Shown here: piece after piece, positions 34,806 to 41,013 of the stretch
Layout of the letters: every line of letters begins with the position of its first letter
Position numbering within the stretch: the stretch's first letter is position 1
NCBI GenBank assembly: GCA_964558645.1
Contig: CAZLEV010000017.1
Location: 1 to 58,994 of the forward strand
Source: an uncultured archaeon
GTDB taxonomy: Archaea > Asgardarchaeota > Thorarchaeia > Thorarchaeales > Thorarchaeaceae
DNA: 58,994 bases
Reading direction: 5' to 3'
Program-made: the position numbers and the translations under genes
The notes under the pieces: model-generated
Database searches by the model: none
The model's input: only the letters and a program-made list of their open reading frames with translations
What the model was told of the DNA's origin: nothing

Positions 34806-35723
34806 ATGGTCAAAGGATACGAAGTATCTGAGGATGGGACTCTTCAGGAAGTGGAGCTTACTAAGGAGACCCTTGAGTCTGGTAGTGTTGTCTGTGTGAT
34901 CGATGACGCAACAAAGAGCATCTATCTCTGGAAAGGGACAGGAGCGGGAATTCGAAAGAAATTCATCGGTGCAAGGGTTGCCACAAACCTGCGGACAGAA
35001 TACGGGTTTCACTTCAAGGTGAGACCTCTTGATGAAGGAGAGGAGCCACCAACTTTCTTCACAGCACTCTCAGGTGAAACAGCAGCTGAGCCGGTAATCA
35101 AGCCTGGGGAAACAGCACCACCATCACCTCCCACCCCGAAGACACAGCCCACAACACCAGAGGCCCCGTCAACTACATCAGCACCACCCCCAAAGCCAAA
35201 ACCAGCCAAACCAAAGACTGCCGATGTTCCATCGAAACCACCTACCCCACCACCAACTAGAGCACCGCCCAGTTCTTCGGCTTCTAGTACATCTTCAGCC
35301 ACTGTTGCTCCCAAGGTGCCGTCTGGCGCAATAGAAGAAATGATCAAGGAACTCGAAGATAGTGAACCTCCAGAAGGATATAGAAGAGAACTACTCATCG
35401 TCTACAACGAACTGTTCACTGTGGCAGAACGAACCATAAGGCTCTTCGATCAGGTGAAGGTGGAGAGGAGGTTTGAGAAGGTGAAAGAGCCTCCTGAAGG
35501 AACGTTCATGGCAGAGGGCTTCATCCCTAGAGTTATAGTAAAAGACGGCAGAGTGCTGGGTATTGAGTTACTCAAAGGAACGCCTGACGCGATACTCAGT
35601 CCAATCAAGTCCGAGATGAAAGAACGCCTTGGCGACCTTATCAGTTTCTTCAAGTCGGAAGTTGAGCAGGGTGAGGTCCCCTCAGCCGAGACCAAGAAGA
35701 AGAAGAAACTCGTAGCCAAGTGA
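34806..35723 (+). CDS. Asgard gelsolin-domain protein, 1DGelX-like (gelsolin domain, Pro-rich linker, X domain, basic tail)
   Basis: VIDDATKSIYLWKGTGAGIRKKFIGARVA...LDEGEEPPTF gelsolin core; PPEGYRRELLIV second domain; KKKKKLVAK C-terminus. Confidence 0.85.
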   Translation: MVKGYEVSEDGTLQEVELTKETLESGSVVCVIDDATKSIYLWKGTGAGIRKKFIGARVATNLRTEYGFHFKVRPLDEGEEPPTFFTALSGETAAEPVIKPGETAPPSPPTPKTQPTTPEAPSTTSAPPPKPKPAKPKTADVPSKPPTPPPTRAPPSSSASSTSSATVAPKVPSGAIEEMIKELEDSEPPEGYRRELLIVYNELFTVAERTIRLFDQVKVERRFEKVKEPPEGTFMAEGFIPRVIVKDGRVLGIELLKGTPDAILSPIKSEMKERLGDLISFFKSEVEQGEVPSAETKKKKKLVAK

Positions 35724-35787
35724 GTCAGTCCGGCAAAGGTATTTATCATGTACTGTGGTTAGCCCATCAGTTGGAGACGAAGCAATA

Positions 35788-36177
35788 ATGTCAACCCATC
35801 TTGATCCAGCCAAGGAGAAGGAACTAGTCGAACTGCTCATGGGACTGACTGACATCACAGACCTTGATGCCATAGCAGTTGTAAGCAAACAGGGAGTTAA
35901 GTTGGCTTATTTCGCCACAGAGGAATCTGATGCCGACCCCGACCTCATGGCCGCAGTCAGTGCCGCTCTTCTCGTTCAAGGAGAAATGGCATCGGATAAA
36001 CTGTATTTGGATGAGCTCTATGAGGTTATCGTCAGGGGAAAGGATGGCTTCGTCGTCCTATCACATGCAGGCGATTTTCTGATCATGGGTTCGGCAAAGG
36101 ATCTTACGTCAATGGGACTCGCAATCACCCAGATGAGGAAGTACGCCAAAGAGATTGGTGATCTACTCGCCGCGTGA
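35788..36177 (+). CDS. Roadblock/LC7 domain protein
   Basis: AIAVVSKQG...DPDLMAAVSAALL...EVIVRGKDGFVVL...MGLA pattern. Confidence 0.9.
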   Translation: MSTHLDPAKEKELVELLMGLTDITDLDAIAVVSKQGVKLAYFATEESDADPDLMAAVSAALLVQGEMASDKLYLDELYEVIVRGKDGFVVLSHAGDFLIMGSAKDLTSMGLAITQMRKYAKEIGDLLAA

Positions 36178-36285: not shown

Positions 36286-37491
36286 GTGAAACTCGATATT
36301 ACATCACGTGCTGCAGACTTGAGATATGCTATTCGCGACATCGTCGTTGCGGCAAAGGAGTACGAGAAGAAAAGAGGGAAAACGCCCCTATACCTGAATA
36401 TCGGAGACCCGCTCAAGTACGACTGGGAGACCCCTAGATTCATGATAGACGCACTTCACGAGGCCTCATCAAAAGGGAGGAATGGATACGCTCCTTCTGA
36501 GGGCGAGGATGAGCTCCGTAATGCAGCAGCTGAAAAGGAGAAGCGTGTTAACGGCACTGATATCGACCCTGAACGGATGATCATAACTGCAGGGGTATCT
36601 GAGGCGATTCAGTTTCTGACCGGCGCGTTAATCTCGGAGGAAGCCGAATTTCTCGTACCAGGACCCGCATATCCACCGTACATCTCATACATCAGTTATT
36701 TCGGTGGGAAGCCCGTAACGTATAGAACCATAGAGGAAGAAGGCTGGATTCCTGATGTGGATGACCTGAGAGGAAAGATAAACGAGAGAACCAAGGGAAT
36801 TCTGGTCATAAACCCAAACAACCCGACAGGAGCAGTCTATGATAGAAACACCCTCAAACAGATTGCAGACATCGCAGGTGAATACGAACTCCCACTTGTA
36901 TCTGACGAGATCTATGACCAGCTCACTTTTGATATGAAACAGACGCCAATGGCGGGGGTTGTGGGGGACGTGCCCATGATAGGATTCAACGGTATAAGCA
37001 AAGTCTACCTAGCACCCGGTTGGAGAATTGGATACGTCTACTTCCAAGATGAGAACGGCGAGCTCGAACCCCTAAGAGATGCCATGGTACGCCAAGCCAG
37101 GATCAGGATCTGCACTAACACCCCCACCCAGCTTGCAGCTGCTGCTGCCCTCCGAAGCGATGGAGGCCACATCAATGGAATGCTAGAGCGTCTCAGAAAG
37201 CGACGACAGATAATTTGGGAACGTTTGAACGACATTGATGGGGTCTCAGCATCTCTCCCTCAGGCAGCGTTCTACATAATGGCAAAGGTGGAGCTGGACG
37301 GAATCTGGAGAAATGACCATGACTTCGTTCTCGACTTGCTCAATGATACGGGAGTGGTATTCGTTCCCGGTTCCGGGTTCTGTGCCGACTACGGCCGTAA
37401 TCATTTCAGAAGCGTATTCTTGCCGCCACCAGATATGATAGCTGAGGCAATGGACCGATTAGAGAGATTCATGGACAAGAAGCGAATCTAG
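36286..37491 (+). CDS. Aminotransferase class I/II (alanine aminotransferase-like)
   Basis: YAIRD, LNIGDP, INPNNPTG, SDEIY, GISKVYLAPGWRIG, VPGSGF. Confidence 0.95.
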   Translation: MKLDITSRAADLRYAIRDIVVAAKEYEKKRGKTPLYLNIGDPLKYDWETPRFMIDALHEASSKGRNGYAPSEGEDELRNAAAEKEKRVNGTDIDPERMIITAGVSEAIQFLTGALISEEAEFLVPGPAYPPYISYISYFGGKPVTYRTIEEEGWIPDVDDLRGKINERTKGILVINPNNPTGAVYDRNTLKQIADIAGEYELPLVSDEIYDQLTFDMKQTPMAGVVGDVPMIGFNGISKVYLAPGWRIGYVYFQDENGELEPLRDAMVRQARIRICTNTPTQLAAAAALRSDGGHINGMLERLRKRRQIIWERLNDIDGVSASLPQAAFYIMAKVELDGIWRNDHDFVLDLLNDTGVVFVPGSGFCADYGRNHFRSVFLPPPDMIAEAMDRLERFMDKKRI

Positions 37492-39263
37492 GAAAGCTCT
37501 TGTCTCTTACTCTCGATAACCTCACGAATCTTGCTTCGGATTGAATCGATCAATTCCTTGGCAAACTTCAGACCAGCCGGCTCGCGCAAGGAAGCAGCGG
37601 TCAGGTAGGGGTCATTGATAATCCTCTCAATCCCTTCACGTAGTACGGCGACTTCAGAGCTGACACGAGTCACTGTTGTTCGGATCTCGGTTCTTCTCGC
37701 AGCTTCAGAGGGGTCATCAGTTGTGGCGGCACTTGGAAGCCTTGAATGTAGCTGCTCAAGCTGCTCTGCAATATCTGAGGCCTTCTTATGCAGTACCTTG
37801 GTTCTTTCAACCAGCGAAGAACGGGTTTCAAGGTCAGTCTTCTGTTCATCTTTGACGCTATCGAGCTCGGTCTCGAAATCTCTTGCCAGTGTCTTCAGCC
37901 GTTCCATCAGGAGATCCTCAATTGGACCCAGGTGCTCTCTAGCGAATTTCTTCTTCTCTTCCAATCGAGCGGTTTCAATGCTCTTGATCAGGTCTTCATC
38001 TCCAATGACGGAGTCCAGGGTATTGACAAGCTCGTTCACAACTGCAATCCTCGACTTAGCCGACTGCAATTCCTGATTCTCAATGTTGGTTCTTGCTCTG
38101 CTGAGAGCTTGTGAAACGCCTTCTGCTATTCTGTCGAGAGGTTCGGCTTGGAACGAAGAAACATCAATAGAGGACTTCAACAGACTGAGCCGTGCCTCCG
38201 TGACATCGGCGTCATGGAGTAGTTTTTCCGTCATTTTGAAATCGCGTAGAATGAAGGTCGCGGGACCGGCTTGGAATGAGTATTCTGAGTTCAACATGTC
38301 TCTATAGGAACCACGCAGAACTACCTCGTATTCTCGTTCTCCACTCATGTCTTGTGACGCCTTTGCAATGAGTTCGAGATTCAGACTGTCATCGGGTCCA
38401 AGTTTCGACAGCTTGGTCGTCTTATCGCCCCTGACAAGAACTAGCTCTTCGTCTATAAACCACTCAAGAGATAGTCCGAGCGCATCACCATCACCATTGT
38501 TTGTGATGGTGCCCCGTATAGGAAACTCTTCTGTGAAAGTCATGTCCACAGGAAGATCCAGTTGCCCGACGAGTTTCGGCACCTTAAGTTTGCCTCGAAG
38601 CATCTCTCGTGCCATGTCAAGACCCTTGTCTACATACTTCGTGAAATCCTGAGCATTTGCATTTGTCAGAGCTGACTTGAGCTCGGTGACAGTAGCATTC
38701 TCGGCACTTGAGAAAGAGGAGATATCAACAGACTCGATGGCAGATTGTAACTGCTGAGGTATTTGTGTGATTCTGACAACGCCCGGATAGGTCAGCTTCG
38801 AGGCATTCTCAGCACAGAACGCTCTGGCCTTGTTGAATCCTTCAGCATCTTTTCCAATCATTAAATACATCATGCTGGCGGCAGTGGCAAGAGCTGCACC
38901 CTTACGAGTCTCTGCATCTTCTCCCCACATGAGATGCTCATCTGATGCAGCCAGAAGGTCTTCTGCAGCCCTCTCATAGGCATCCATTGCCTTTTGACTC
39001 TCTGCAAGTGTTAAGTAGACATCACCGGCAGCACACATATTGCGTGCAGCGCTCTTATAGCTCTTGGAGGATCGGAATTCTCCAGCGGCCTTCTTGTAGG
39101 TCTCAGCAGCTTGCGTATAGATCTTCTGTGCCTCTTCGATTTCTCCACGTTGTTCAGAAAGCTCAGCTGCGATCTCGTATTTCTTGCCGGCCTCCGTAAA
39201 GGATTGTCTCAAGGACTCCTTCGTCGCCTCTTCAATGATACGTCGAACGTCTTCATCAGACAT
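37488..39263 (-). CDS. SNAP-like TPR solenoid, Ig-like (CARDB-type) domain and long coiled coil; candidate arcadin-4-like
   Basis: EAGKKYEIAAE/QAAETYKKAA/KAMDAYERAAE repeats; ITNNGDGDA...RGSYRD beta domain; heptad-rich C-terminus. Confidence 0.75.
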   Translation of the reverse strand: MSDEDVRRIIEEATKESLRQSFTEAGKKYEIAAELSEQRGEIEEAQKIYTQAAETYKKAAGEFRSSKSYKSAARNMCAAGDVYLTLAESQKAMDAYERAAEDLLAASDEHLMWGEDAETRKGAALATAASMMYLMIGKDAEGFNKARAFCAENASKLTYPGVVRITQIPQQLQSAIESVDISSFSSAENATVTELKSALTNANAQDFTKYVDKGLDMAREMLRGKLKVPKLVGQLDLPVDMTFTEEFPIRGTITNNGDGDALGLSLEWFIDEELVLVRGDKTTKLSKLGPDDSLNLELIAKASQDMSGEREYEVVLRGSYRDMLNSEYSFQAGPATFILRDFKMTEKLLHDADVTEARLSLLKSSIDVSSFQAEPLDRIAEGVSQALSRARTNIENQELQSAKSRIAVVNELVNTLDSVIGDEDLIKSIETARLEEKKKFAREHLGPIEDLLMERLKTLARDFETELDSVKDEQKTDLETRSSLVERTKVLHKKASDIAEQLEQLHSRLPSAATTDDPSEAARRTEIRTTVTRVSSEVAVLREGIERIINDPYLTAASLREPAGLKFAKELIDSIRSKIREVIESKRQELS

Positions 39264-39332: not shown

Positions 39333-39623
39333 TCAATAGACCTCTCTCGGAGAATGCTTCAGACGATCTGGAAGTGCCCCTCCATGACCTTCGAAAACGA
39401 GTTCATAACCACGCCCGATTCGGCCCTTGCTGGCGGTCTGAAATCCCGACTTCTGGATTGAGCGTGCGTTTCTCTCAGCAGCTCTTCGCTGTATCATGCT
39501 TGTACCACTTGGTACAACAAGAACCAGCTTCTTCTGTGAGTCATCCACCTTCAGCGTGATATCAGTAGACGGCTGACTAGAGCATTCATGGAATTGGTTA
39601 TCACGATATTCTAGAGTTGTCAT
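39333..39623 (-). CDS. Small 96-aa protein with degenerate gelsolin-like pattern; candidate arcadin-3-like
   Basis: Start re-called at ATG 39623 with purine-rich SD-like sequence; LKVDDSQKKLVLVVPSGTSMIQRRAAERNARSI parallels VIDDATKSIYLWKGTGAGIRKKFIGARVATNL of the 34806 gene. Confidence 0.65.
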   Translation of the reverse strand: MTTLEYRDNQFHECSSQPSTDITLKVDDSQKKLVLVVPSGTSMIQRRAAERNARSIQKSGFQTASKGRIGRGYELVFEGHGGALPDRLKHSPREVY

Positions 39624-39775
39624 CTGGACATTCCCATCCTGAAACCTTCTAGTGTTTCTGTAGCTTGCTAGCATATTAGCATTTGGCCGACGAAGCAAAA
39701 AGAAAAAGAGAGGACAAGAGGTGTTCCCAGCACACCCAGAGCGAGGGGAAACCTCCTGCAACTACTCCAACCAGT

Positions 39776-40051
39776 TTAGCTTGGTGGGGGTGGGGGTGGA
39801 GGAGTGTCGTCCTGCCTGGTGTCAACTGGTCTGGTGACTGAATCCCGCTTCTTGGAAGTGAAGAAGAAGCCAACCAGAATGAAGATGAGGCCCACAATGG
39901 CCACAACTGCTCCGATGATGACCTGATAGTCTTCCACAAACACGTATCCCATGCCTGGAAGCAGTGCAATCACTGCACCAGCAATCACGAGAAGTGCACC
40001 CAAGCAGACAGGTCCGGTTCGAACGTATTCACGCCATGTTAGATAAGACAT
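39776..40051 (-). CDS. Small two-TM membrane protein with C-terminal poly-proline (PPPPPPPS*)
   Basis: Two hydrophobic helices, KKR after TM2, codons cct cca ccc cca ccc cca cca before the stop. Confidence 0.75.
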   Translation of the reverse strand: MSYLTWREYVRTGPVCLGALLVIAGAVIALLPGMGYVFVEDYQVIIGAVVAIVGLIFILVGFFFTSKKRDSVTRPVDTRQDDTPPPPPPPS

Positions 40052-40137
40052 TGTAATTTCTCCTAGTCGCGAAAGCCCAGTGGCTACTCTTTCTAGTCAG
40101 TCTTCTGGATTGATTTAAGATTGTCGGGGGTATATTC

Positions 40138-41013
40138 TCACTCTACTCTGAACGTGACCACACAACCGGTAGAAGATGTGTTCACCATGATGTCAACACC
40201 TGTTAGCTCGCTGACCTTTTTCGCAAGGATCTCGTGATATGCACAGGGGTATCCTGCCGGCAACAAAGTGCCTTCAGGATCAATTCTTCGTGTCAGCTCG
40301 AGAAGATAGCACGAACCTGTTTCGATTGTTTCCCGATCTGTCCCGGTCCTAGGTATCTGACTTTCATAGGAGCAACTCTGGATAAGCTCTGCAAAACCAC
40401 GGATCAGATCTTCTGAACTACCGCCAGCACTCCAGAGCCCGATGAGTGTTTGCGCTGCCTGCTCAAACATTTCCTCTAAGTGTCCCTCTGGCAGATTCGA
40501 GCCGTAGACAGCCATTTCTACAAGCGCTACAGCTCTCCCGTCTGTGCTGCTTTTCCATAGGTTTCGATCCGCAATCTTTTCGAGCGTGGGCACCGCGCCA
40601 AGCTTTGGAAGATCCAGTGCAGTTTCAGGTTCGACGGACTCGGCCATGCCTACAGAGCCAGTATCTGGATGTGCACTGCTTGCCGAGGCCTCCGCAGGAC
40701 CCTCATCATCCCGCACCAAATCTGGAATCTCAAAGTTGGGAGCGACGCCGGACTGCTGATATCTTCGGGCAAACTGCATTAGACGACCAGCGCACATAGC
40801 CACAGCATGACGGCTTAATCCCTCAATCCGCGCATGTCCATAGACTATCCCCACTAGATTATCCAGATTGAGATCGTTCATCGTCTTCTCGGCGATAATC
40901 TTCTTTCCGCGTACTACTCTAGCAGCCCATCGCTCGTTCATCACTCCAGCCTGTGCAGCATAGCTAGTGTTTGTGATGCCAATCAGCGGTGAGATCGGGT
41001 AGAAATCACTCAT
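40138..41013 (-). CDS. Candidate arcadin-2-like N-terminal domain fused to a V4R/MetOD1-like Cys-containing C-terminal domain
   Basis: PISPLIGITNTSYAAQAG...WAARVVRGKK..LSRHAV N-terminus; low-complexity linker; SCYLL...YPCAYHE...TGCVVTF. Confidence 0.6.
   Translation of the reverse strand: MSDFYPISPLIGITNTSYAAQAGVMNERWAARVVRGKKIIAEKTMNDLNLDNLVGIVYGHARIEGLSRHAVAMCAGRLMQFARRYQQSGVAPNFEIPDLVRDDEGPAEASASSAHPDTGSVGMAESVEPETALDLPKLGAVPTLEKIADRNLWKSSTDGRAVALVEMAVYGSNLPEGHLEEMFEQAAQTLIGLWSAGGSSEDLIRGFAELIQSCSYESQIPRTGTDRETIETGSCYLLELTRRIDPEGTLLPAGYPCAYHEILAKKVSELTGVDIMVNTSSTGCVVTFRVE

Follow-up and report, generated by a model that had tools for sequence, protein, structure and literature searches.

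Architecture of a membrane protein with a seven-proline tail

The window analyzed here is a stretch of 58,994 nucleotides (nt; contig CAZLEV010000017.1 of assembly GCA_964558645.1) from an uncultured Asgard archaeon of the family Thorarchaeaceae. At 39776..40051 on the minus strand lies an open reading frame (ORF) for a 91-amino-acid (aa) membrane protein, hereafter the anchor, that consists of a two-helix transmembrane (TM) hairpin, the residues KKR and a C-terminal TPPPPPPPS. A preliminary description of this DNA, made from the letters alone, had proposed that this protein is a primitive membrane-anchored recruiter of profilin and actin, and its outline of hairpin, KKR and TPPPPPPPS followed by a stop codon agrees exactly with the translation. 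The gene and the parts of its product are:

39776..40051, minus strand: coding sequence of the anchor (stop codon TAA at 39776-39778), with 87 homologues and a single copy per genome in whole-genome searches
40013..40051, minus strand: predicted cytoplasmic N-terminus, residues 1-13, with two Arg and the family consensus MSYLTWREYVRSGP; Y3, L4, T5, R7 and R11 near-invariant
39959..40012, minus strand: TM helix 1, residues 14-31, hydropathy peak 2.8; zero charged residues in 81/81 near-full-length members
39923..39958, minus strand: short acidic loop, residues 32-43, predicted extracellular; 0 Lys/Arg and 1.7 Asp/Glu
39860..39922, minus strand: TM helix 2 (TM2), residues 44-64, hydropathy 3.2; G47, G54, G61 and F62 invariant
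39803..39859, minus strand: predicted cytoplasmic linker, residues 65-83, with KKR, an RDSV motif and an acidic stretch running to D-D-T (from the alignment and charge counts)
39779..39802, minus strand: hepta-proline tract (39782-39802) and terminal residue, here Ser (from the ORF and the family alignment)

After TM2, the order is thus SKKRDS, a charged linker and DDT-P7-S-stop (P7, seven consecutive prolines), and within the linker K68, R69, D70, S71, V72, V76, T78 and D82 are near-invariant in the family alignment. The three glycines G47, G54 and G61 of TM2 are spaced seven residues apart and would line one face of the helix, which could serve helix packing or oligomerization and so a multivalent display of the tail.

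The preliminary description had named conservation of the tail among orthologues as a check on its proposal, and the tail proved to be the most conserved segment of the protein. The majority fraction was 0.98 for the P7 end, compared with 0.91 for the N-terminus, 0.83 for the linker, 0.82 for TM helix 1, 0.70 for TM2 and 0.54 for the loop. Exactly seven consecutive prolines occur in 73 of the 87 homologues and never more, at least four occur in 85/87, and 81/87 end in Asp, the Ser of the window and the Asn of a congener being rare variants. In 67/87, RDSV lies exactly 22 residues from the C-terminus. Even the copy from a second Thorarchaeia family (genome G025), which shares 45% identity with the anchor, ends in DTDV-P7-D, so that the P7 end persists at this divergence although synonymous sites are saturated. 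The seven prolines in the window use the codons CCT CCA CCC CCA CCC CCA CCA (39782-39802), a mixture already pointed out in the preliminary description, and across 15 orthologues each of the seven positions shows three to four different CCN codons, with a usage similar to that of flanking genes. This diversity rules out slippage or a low-complexity artefact, and because the codons vary at every position, selection must act on the amino acid and not on the DNA.

The family also allowed a prediction of membrane topology. Among 81 near-full-length members, the mean number of Lys and Arg residues is 2.0 for the N-terminus and 5.4 for the first 15 residues of the tail, whereas the loop has 0.0 and its only charges are acidic. 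By the positive-inside rule, both termini are therefore predicted to be cytoplasmic, which extends to the whole family the tail orientation that the preliminary description had considered probable for the anchor. Since conservation peaks in the tail and is lowest in the outside loop, this topology suggests that the protein functions on the cytoplasmic side.

The anchor is a real gene under purifying selection. For 11 equal-length orthologues, the median nonsynonymous divergence (pN) was 0.22 and the median synonymous divergence (pS) 0.74, the latter saturated, corresponding to a dN/dS of ~0.13, and the gene has a promoter box and a ribosome-binding site of its own. The signals around it are:

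40060..40063, minus strand: Shine-Dalgarno-like GGAG, 8 nt 5' of the ATG; GGAG or GGGAG at like spacing in most orthologous loci listed
40112..40126, minus strand: promoter-like box CGACAATCTTAAATC, ~60 nt 5' of the ATG and 12 nt past the stop codon of the upstream gene
39697..39709, minus strand: terminator-like T-rich run TCTTTTTCTTTTT (coding strand), ~65 nt past the anchor stop codon
39672..39687, minus strand: separate promoter-like box GCCAAATGCTAATATG for the downstream 96-aa gene, strict pattern in 13/20 loci and visible in some others

A near-identical box of the CGACAATCTTAAATC type precedes the gene in all 19 orthologous loci listed, including a recognizable version ahead of the 45%-identical copy, and it would correspond to a BRE/TATA element (BRE, B recognition element). 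T-rich runs follow the anchor in most orthologous loci, several with a G+C-rich inverted repeat before them as judged by eye; a scan for bacterial-type terminators made no call at the run at 39697..39709. The spacer between the anchor and the 96-aa gene is ~150 nt long and contains, besides the T-rich run, the box of the 96-aa gene, which follows the pattern CCAAAT.CTAATATG. As this downstream box is conserved, translational coupling between the two genes is counter-indicated.

A hairpin was also noted in the 5' untranslated region (UTR) of the anchor gene, at 40064-40105 (minus strand) just 5' of the GGAG and likewise in loci L002-L020, with the consensus CGAGAC, 10-12 nt, GTCTCG. In 17 orthologues, 87.6% of cells pair, compared with 24-47% for slid partners, and four of the six pairs have changed on both sides. 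The copy in the window deviates from the consensus stem sequence. RNAalifold returned no structure for this 5'UTR; the hairpin was drawn by hand and then backed by the pair counts. It may control translation of the anchor.

Searches of Pfam and the ESM Atlas with the anchor protein found nothing beyond its own family. Matches to Pfam DUF7269, DUF6114 and DUF7541 scored 17.5-19 bits against gathering cut-offs of 28-29 and covered only the hydrophobic hairpin, and membership in these families was rejected. One homologue (P0057) carries the NCBI name of an LPXTG cell-wall anchor; the motif is absent from the sequence of the anchor and from the family consensus, and the label probably reflects the TM segment and KKKR. 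An actin-assembly module (FH2, EVH2 or WH2/VCA) is also absent, as the hairpin and tail use all 91 residues and no Pfam family scored above its cut-off.

Distribution of the family and rarity of polyproline

The 87 homologues, found by word-indexed search, share 58-91% identity with the anchor, and all that are named by taxon come from Thorarchaeota or Promethearchaeota. Of 87 Thorarchaeia genomes, 70 carry the gene, with every one of the 17 genera represented, and among the 24 genomes of high quality it occurs in 21, one of which is G025 of the second family. In three family members without it, the neighboring genes are also missing or the locus lies at a contig edge, and these absences therefore look like assembly gaps. 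Fifteen genomes from 12 other Asgard families yielded no copy. When 1.84 billion representative proteins were searched by profile without filters, seven matched, six from the family itself and a marginal seventh (E about 1e-3) confined to the TM region. With none in the other Asgard genomes sampled and no outside relatives in the profile search, the family is, by its sequence distribution, an invention specific to Thorarchaeia. No paper describing it was found among those searched. Actin, profilins and gelsolins are all known from Asgard archaea.

We also scanned 400 genomes of the phylum at the DNA level for six prolines, one further residue and a stop codon (P6-X-stop), with the reversed pattern as a control. 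In the main Thorarchaeia family, 61 of 85 genomes gave matches, and most of these have Asp before the stop, as is typical of the anchor gene. Outside Thorarchaeia, the rate was close to that of the reversed-pattern control, and 20 such matches that we fetched were mostly short or spurious frames. The one TM-anchored case among them, from an f3 Asgard genome, has the same layout of TM segments, basic patch and terminal polyproline: a 157-aa two-TM protein ending in RARRKSA-P9-S (locus L073:51-524, minus strand, on G392:C89). It is confined to this genome, on a 2.5-kb contig, and was not found in three sister genomes.

Polyproline is rare in the genome that carries the window (G000, 3.63 Mb). 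A census of all six-frame ORFs with 50 aa or more (31,589) found runs of at least five prolines in only six ORFs and P7 in three, so that a tract like that of the anchor is well outside chance expectation. One P7 frame is spurious, being antisense to a 676-aa ORF, which leaves the anchor and one other real P7 protein, encoded at G000:C5:76411-77793 (minus strand; locus L048). This second protein resembles the anchor in having Thr, seven prolines and then an acidic residue (T-P7-E; acidic or Ser in the two proteins). It differs from the anchor in being soluble, 461 aa long, highly acidic and mostly disordered, with an unrelated sequence and an internal tract followed by the basic RRRR..LFFGA end (...RRRRARRLFFGA). 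The T-P7-(acidic/Ser) context common to the two proteins suggests that they may share a reader. A 99-aa soluble protein ending in ...DHVPPPPP is encoded at G000:C21:15958-16254 (plus strand; locus L047), and its family occurs in only two genera (g1 and g5) of 28 searched.

Profilin and the genes around the anchor

The preliminary description had stated that Asgard archaea encode profilins, some of them reported to bind polyproline, and a close orthologue of one such profilin is present in the same genome. A tandem profilin pair lies at G000:C2:358515-359348 (minus strand; locus L039). The first gene (G000:C2:358971-359348) matches thorProfilin (PDB 7PBH) over its full length with an E-value of 3.6e-53, and all seven of the polyproline-site residues published for thorProfilin (V24, Y28, T29, W53, K139, L141 and I145; bioRxiv 10.1101/2021.08.06.455371) are identical in it. 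The second gene is a divergent paralogue with 28% identity. A profilin of the 7PBH type occurs in 24/24 genomes of the main family; that of G025 is more divergent. Two Asgard profilins have been found to bind polyproline in vitro, thorProfilin with a dissociation constant (KD) of 200-500 uM for a VASP polyproline peptide in nuclear magnetic resonance titrations; the same work pointed out proline motifs in Asgard genomes without defining a native profilin ligand or a protein that links actin to the membrane (PMC8410842).

The neighborhood of the anchor contains the following genes:

39333..39623, minus strand: 96-aa protein with a cryptic gelsolin fold, a candidate reader or partner (AF2 model, pLDDT 80; VIA Z 8.8 to 7C2F)
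37488..39263, minus strand: 591-aa scaffold-like protein with helical repeats (1-225), a beta-sandwich (231-340) and a long coiled coil (344-590) (AF2 model, pLDDT 85)
40138..41013, minus strand: 291-aa protein of unknown family, directly 5' of the anchor and syntenic in 17/19 other loci
34806..36177, plus strand: 1DGelX-type gelsolin gene (34806-35723; 7C2F_B, E 1.4e-13) and then a Roadblock/LC7 gene (35755-36177; Robl_LC7, E 6.8e-11)

The gelsolin-like neighbors invoked by the preliminary description are real. The 305-aa product of 34806..35723 consists of a gelsolin domain, a Pro-rich linker, domain X and a KKKKK tail, lies 4 kb from the anchor and, together with its Roadblock/LC7 partner, is kept across the family and in G025. 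Its linker of ~75 residues is rich in PP and PPP motifs, the protein ends in KKKKKLVAK, and the Roadblock gene follows ~30 nt on. This gene and the gelsolin-fold gene both lie within 5 kb of the anchor.

The gelsolin fold of the 96-aa protein was evident from its predicted structure. Its model matched Thor ProGel 7C2F with Z 8.8 over 72 residues at a root-mean-square deviation of 3.0 in a VIA comparison against all 48,161 chains, and 7c2f_B was also the top Foldseek hit; in the VIA comparison, about 20 gelsolin/ADF rows came next, as well as the Sec23 gelsolin domain 2nup_A at Z 5.1. A PDB sequence search and a further sequence search found no match for it, and it is not a Sec23 homologue by sequence. 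The DWG motif marks actin-binding ProGel and 2DGel proteins in the study that also defined 1DGelX (PMC7444086). The 96-aa protein contains no Trp and hence lacks this motif; it has a conserved end, L-P-D-R-L-K-H-S-P-R-E-V-Y, and the aromatic residues Y6, F11 and Y96 are invariant in its family. Most Thorarchaeia have two copies (the paralogue in this genome is at G000:C7:93772-94044), and there are homologues in other Asgard families.

In the model of the 591-aa protein, a repeat domain of nine helices is followed by a beta-sandwich and then by ~250 residues of coiled coil. Its Pfam matches (TPR_12, SNAP and CARDB) are weak, similarity to alpha-SNAP reaches only E 0.08, and full-length Foldseek matches (Integrator INTS7 and gamma-COP) are at the level of architecture, with TM-scores of at most 0.17; the beta-sandwich has a local match to TRAP subunits. 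Other Asgard families have homologues that share 24-26% identity with it. The 291-aa protein had no match in Pfam, PDB sequences or the Atlas, and none to V4R even at E 10.

The conserved order in the main family is 291-aa gene, anchor, 96-aa gene and 591-aa gene, and in both Thorarchaeia families the 591-aa gene is a neighbor of the anchor, in G025 directly 3' of it. Within the main family, however, the whole 20-kb block is syntenic, including the 1DGelX and Roadblock genes and those for an aminotransferase, a GH38 mannosidase and CDC48, so that synteny there says little alone. Members of the 96-aa and 591-aa families are also found in Asgard lineages that lack the anchor, and in six non-Thor loci no small ORF with a TM segment and polyproline adjoins the 591-aa homologues. 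From these distributions, the anchor is, as far as gene content can tell, a later addition among older genes.

Possible roles of the polyproline tail

We propose that the tail is a cytoplasmic docking peptide that would bring a soluble reader, most likely profilin, to the membrane, and we put the probability of this reading at roughly 0.4. The two-helix hairpin would probably pack or oligomerize through the G47/G54/G61 face of TM2 and would display a charged linker of ~20 residues ending in a seven-proline rod, in polyproline II (PPII) conformation, with an acidic cap. We infer that this rod would dock a soluble reader at the membrane, most likely the Thorarchaeal profilin, alone or loaded with actin, and that docking would raise the local amount of polymerizable actin there, close to the gelsolin-type regulators encoded in the same gene block. 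A cytoplasmic docking function of some kind seems to us fairly probable, with profilin the single most likely reader; that Thorarchaeia evolved a minimal receptor at the membrane, dedicated to profilin or profilin-actin, is a tentative idea that we hold to be rather doubtful. The recruiter proposed in the preliminary description thus retains its conserved and predicted cytoplasmic tail, a profilin with a polyproline site in the genome and gelsolin-type neighbors. Of the outcomes that were to refute it, neither loss of the tail among homologues nor an extracytoplasmic tail was borne out by the alignment and the charge counts. What it loses is the word 'primitive', which is doubtful for a gene that appears to be an addition specific to Thorarchaeia and not ancestral or Asgard-wide.

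Known ligands of eukaryotic profilins (formin FH1, Ena/VASP and WASP, and the membrane-anchored class I formins of plants) present six or more prolines in a row within a disordered part of the chain that faces the cytoplasm, as the anchor is predicted to do, and in both cases a profilin with a conserved polyproline site is present in the same organism. Other proline readers prefer different motifs: PxxP for SH3, PPxY for WW, FPPPP for EVH1 and PPG for GYF domains. The homopolymeric tract of the anchor resembles the profilin ligands more than any of these. Unlike formins, VASP and WASP, the anchor has no FH2, WH2, EVH2 or other actin-assembly domain and no sequence homology to them, and its role with profilin is a candidate one; it also differs from eukaryotic profilin ligands in having one tract, of a fixed seven prolines, at the extreme C-terminus of only 91 residues.

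Several points weigh against profilin as the reader. The topology is a prediction from charge counts. The published affinity of thorProfilin for polyproline, measured with the VASP peptide, is weak, and the profilin genes lie on another contig (C2), with no genomic linkage to the anchor. The neighborhood is weak evidence, since synteny within the family covers all 20 kb of the block. Pfam searches of the genome with SH3_1, WW, GYF and WH1 gave no match, but these negatives are weak with respect to other proline readers, because the Pfam Profilin model also has no match in this genome and so misses the real profilins. Eukaryotic profilin ligands vary in their number of prolines, and a strict seven with Asp at the very end points to a reader that demands a closer fit than profilins commonly do.

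At least one equally concrete candidate reader adjoins the anchor gene. The docking peptide could be read by a protein of the same block, either the 96-aa gelsolin-fold protein or the N-terminal domain of the 591-aa protein, and not by profilin, a version that we regard as unlikely. There is a precedent in Sec23, whose gelsolin domain binds, via four aromatic residues, the PPP motifs of Sec31, Sec16 and the membrane protein TANGO1 (PMC7594496). Points in favor of the 96-aa protein are its gelsolin fold, its Sec23 match, its lack of Trp and hence of the DWG motif of actin-binding ProGel and 2DGel, and its invariant Y6, F11 and Y96, which are candidate residues for such a cleft. As related there for TANGO1/cTAGE5, Sec31 and Sec16 with Sec23 (Ma and Goldberg 2016, via PMC7594496), a membrane protein with cytoplasmic Pro triplets meets a gelsolin-fold reader, and the genes of the candidate pair here stand side by side. 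The 96-aa protein is, however, free-standing and outside any Sec23/24 coat, with the actin-binding ProGel as its closest structural match, and TANGO1, unlike the anchor, has a long disordered region with numerous PPP motifs; Sec23 moreover needs PPP only and not P7. For the 591-aa protein, its helical-repeat N-domain might clamp the carboxylate of a C-terminal Pro-Pro-Asp. TPR domains clamp EEVD in this manner, the strict terminal Asp would fit recognition of a C-terminus, and the 591-aa gene adjoins the anchor in both Thorarchaeia families. Both candidates nevertheless belong to families older and wider than the anchor that are also found in Asgard families without it; the 96-aa protein has its second paralogue elsewhere in most Thorarchaeia and its gene is not beside the anchor in G025, and the 591-aa homologues outside Thorarchaeia have no small TM-plus-polyproline gene next to them. 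The tract of the other P7 protein is internal, so that a reader shared by the two would not require a free C-terminus.

Two further explanations need no reader of the tail, and we consider both of them improbable. In one, the heptaproline acts during translation, by analogy with known pauses: a pause that depends on aIF5A, in the last codons of a very short ORF, would give time for co-translational membrane targeting, as for XBP1u, or would tie the amount of protein to aIF5A, as the PPP of CadC does to EF-P, and its strongest form would be an arrest peptide like those of MifM and SecM. Consecutive prolines followed by Asp are among the strongest stalling contexts for EF-P and eIF5A, and here the tract lies immediately ahead of the stop codon in a membrane protein of 91 aa. 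Between TM2 and the tract there are ~20-26 residues, so that TM2 would still be in the exit tunnel during a pause, with TM helix 1 exposed; the fixed length and conserved sequence of the linker are as in arrest peptides, and polyproline is otherwise almost absent from the genome. XBP1u, MifM and SecM resemble the anchor in that a hydrophobic segment leads into conserved C-terminal residues, ~27 of them, whose last part is expected to slow the ribosome. MifM and SecM differ from it in having a coupled downstream cistron, whereas the 96-aa gene has its own promoter box and a terminator-like run intervenes; control of this type was rejected, and stalling itself is putative. The codon usage of the tract shows no rare-codon bias, a count of exactly seven and the conserved preceding Thr would be superfluous for a pause, and the strong conservation of the N-terminus and the TM glycines indicates that the mature protein has a function. 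In the other explanation, the anchor is a small structural subunit of a membrane complex, with the proline rod as a rigid, protease-resistant cap or spacer that recruits nothing. Invariant glycines on one face of the hairpin, a single copy that is near-universal in the class and the lack of homology to anything else would all suit such a subunit. A passive cap, however, would not need exactly seven prolines, a Thr before them and an Asp after them, all kept across saturated synonymous divergence, and no genes for a membrane complex lie beside the anchor.

Should the profilin docking reading be true, the anchor would be the first prokaryotic membrane-anchored polyproline ligand and would give Asgard profilins the native partner that their polyproline site still lacks, linking actin directly to the membrane without formins or phosphoinositides. 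Its binding by profilin would mean that membrane recruitment by polyproline arose in archaea, in at least one lineage, independently of formins; binding by the gelsolin-fold neighbor instead would extend the PPP-gelsolin interaction of the Sec23 type to archaea. The tail offers a peptide of small size and precise sequence, held on a membrane anchor that almost all Thorarchaeia genomes encode, and a profilin of the cognate type, 7PBH, has already been purified and its structure solved.

In two small (1.4 Mb) f3 Asgard genomes, no more than ~550 bp separate the profilin gene from an ORF of 253-256 aa that weakly matches the family of the 96-aa gelsolin-fold protein (G026:C1:1056854-1057859 and G037:C1:950579-951589).

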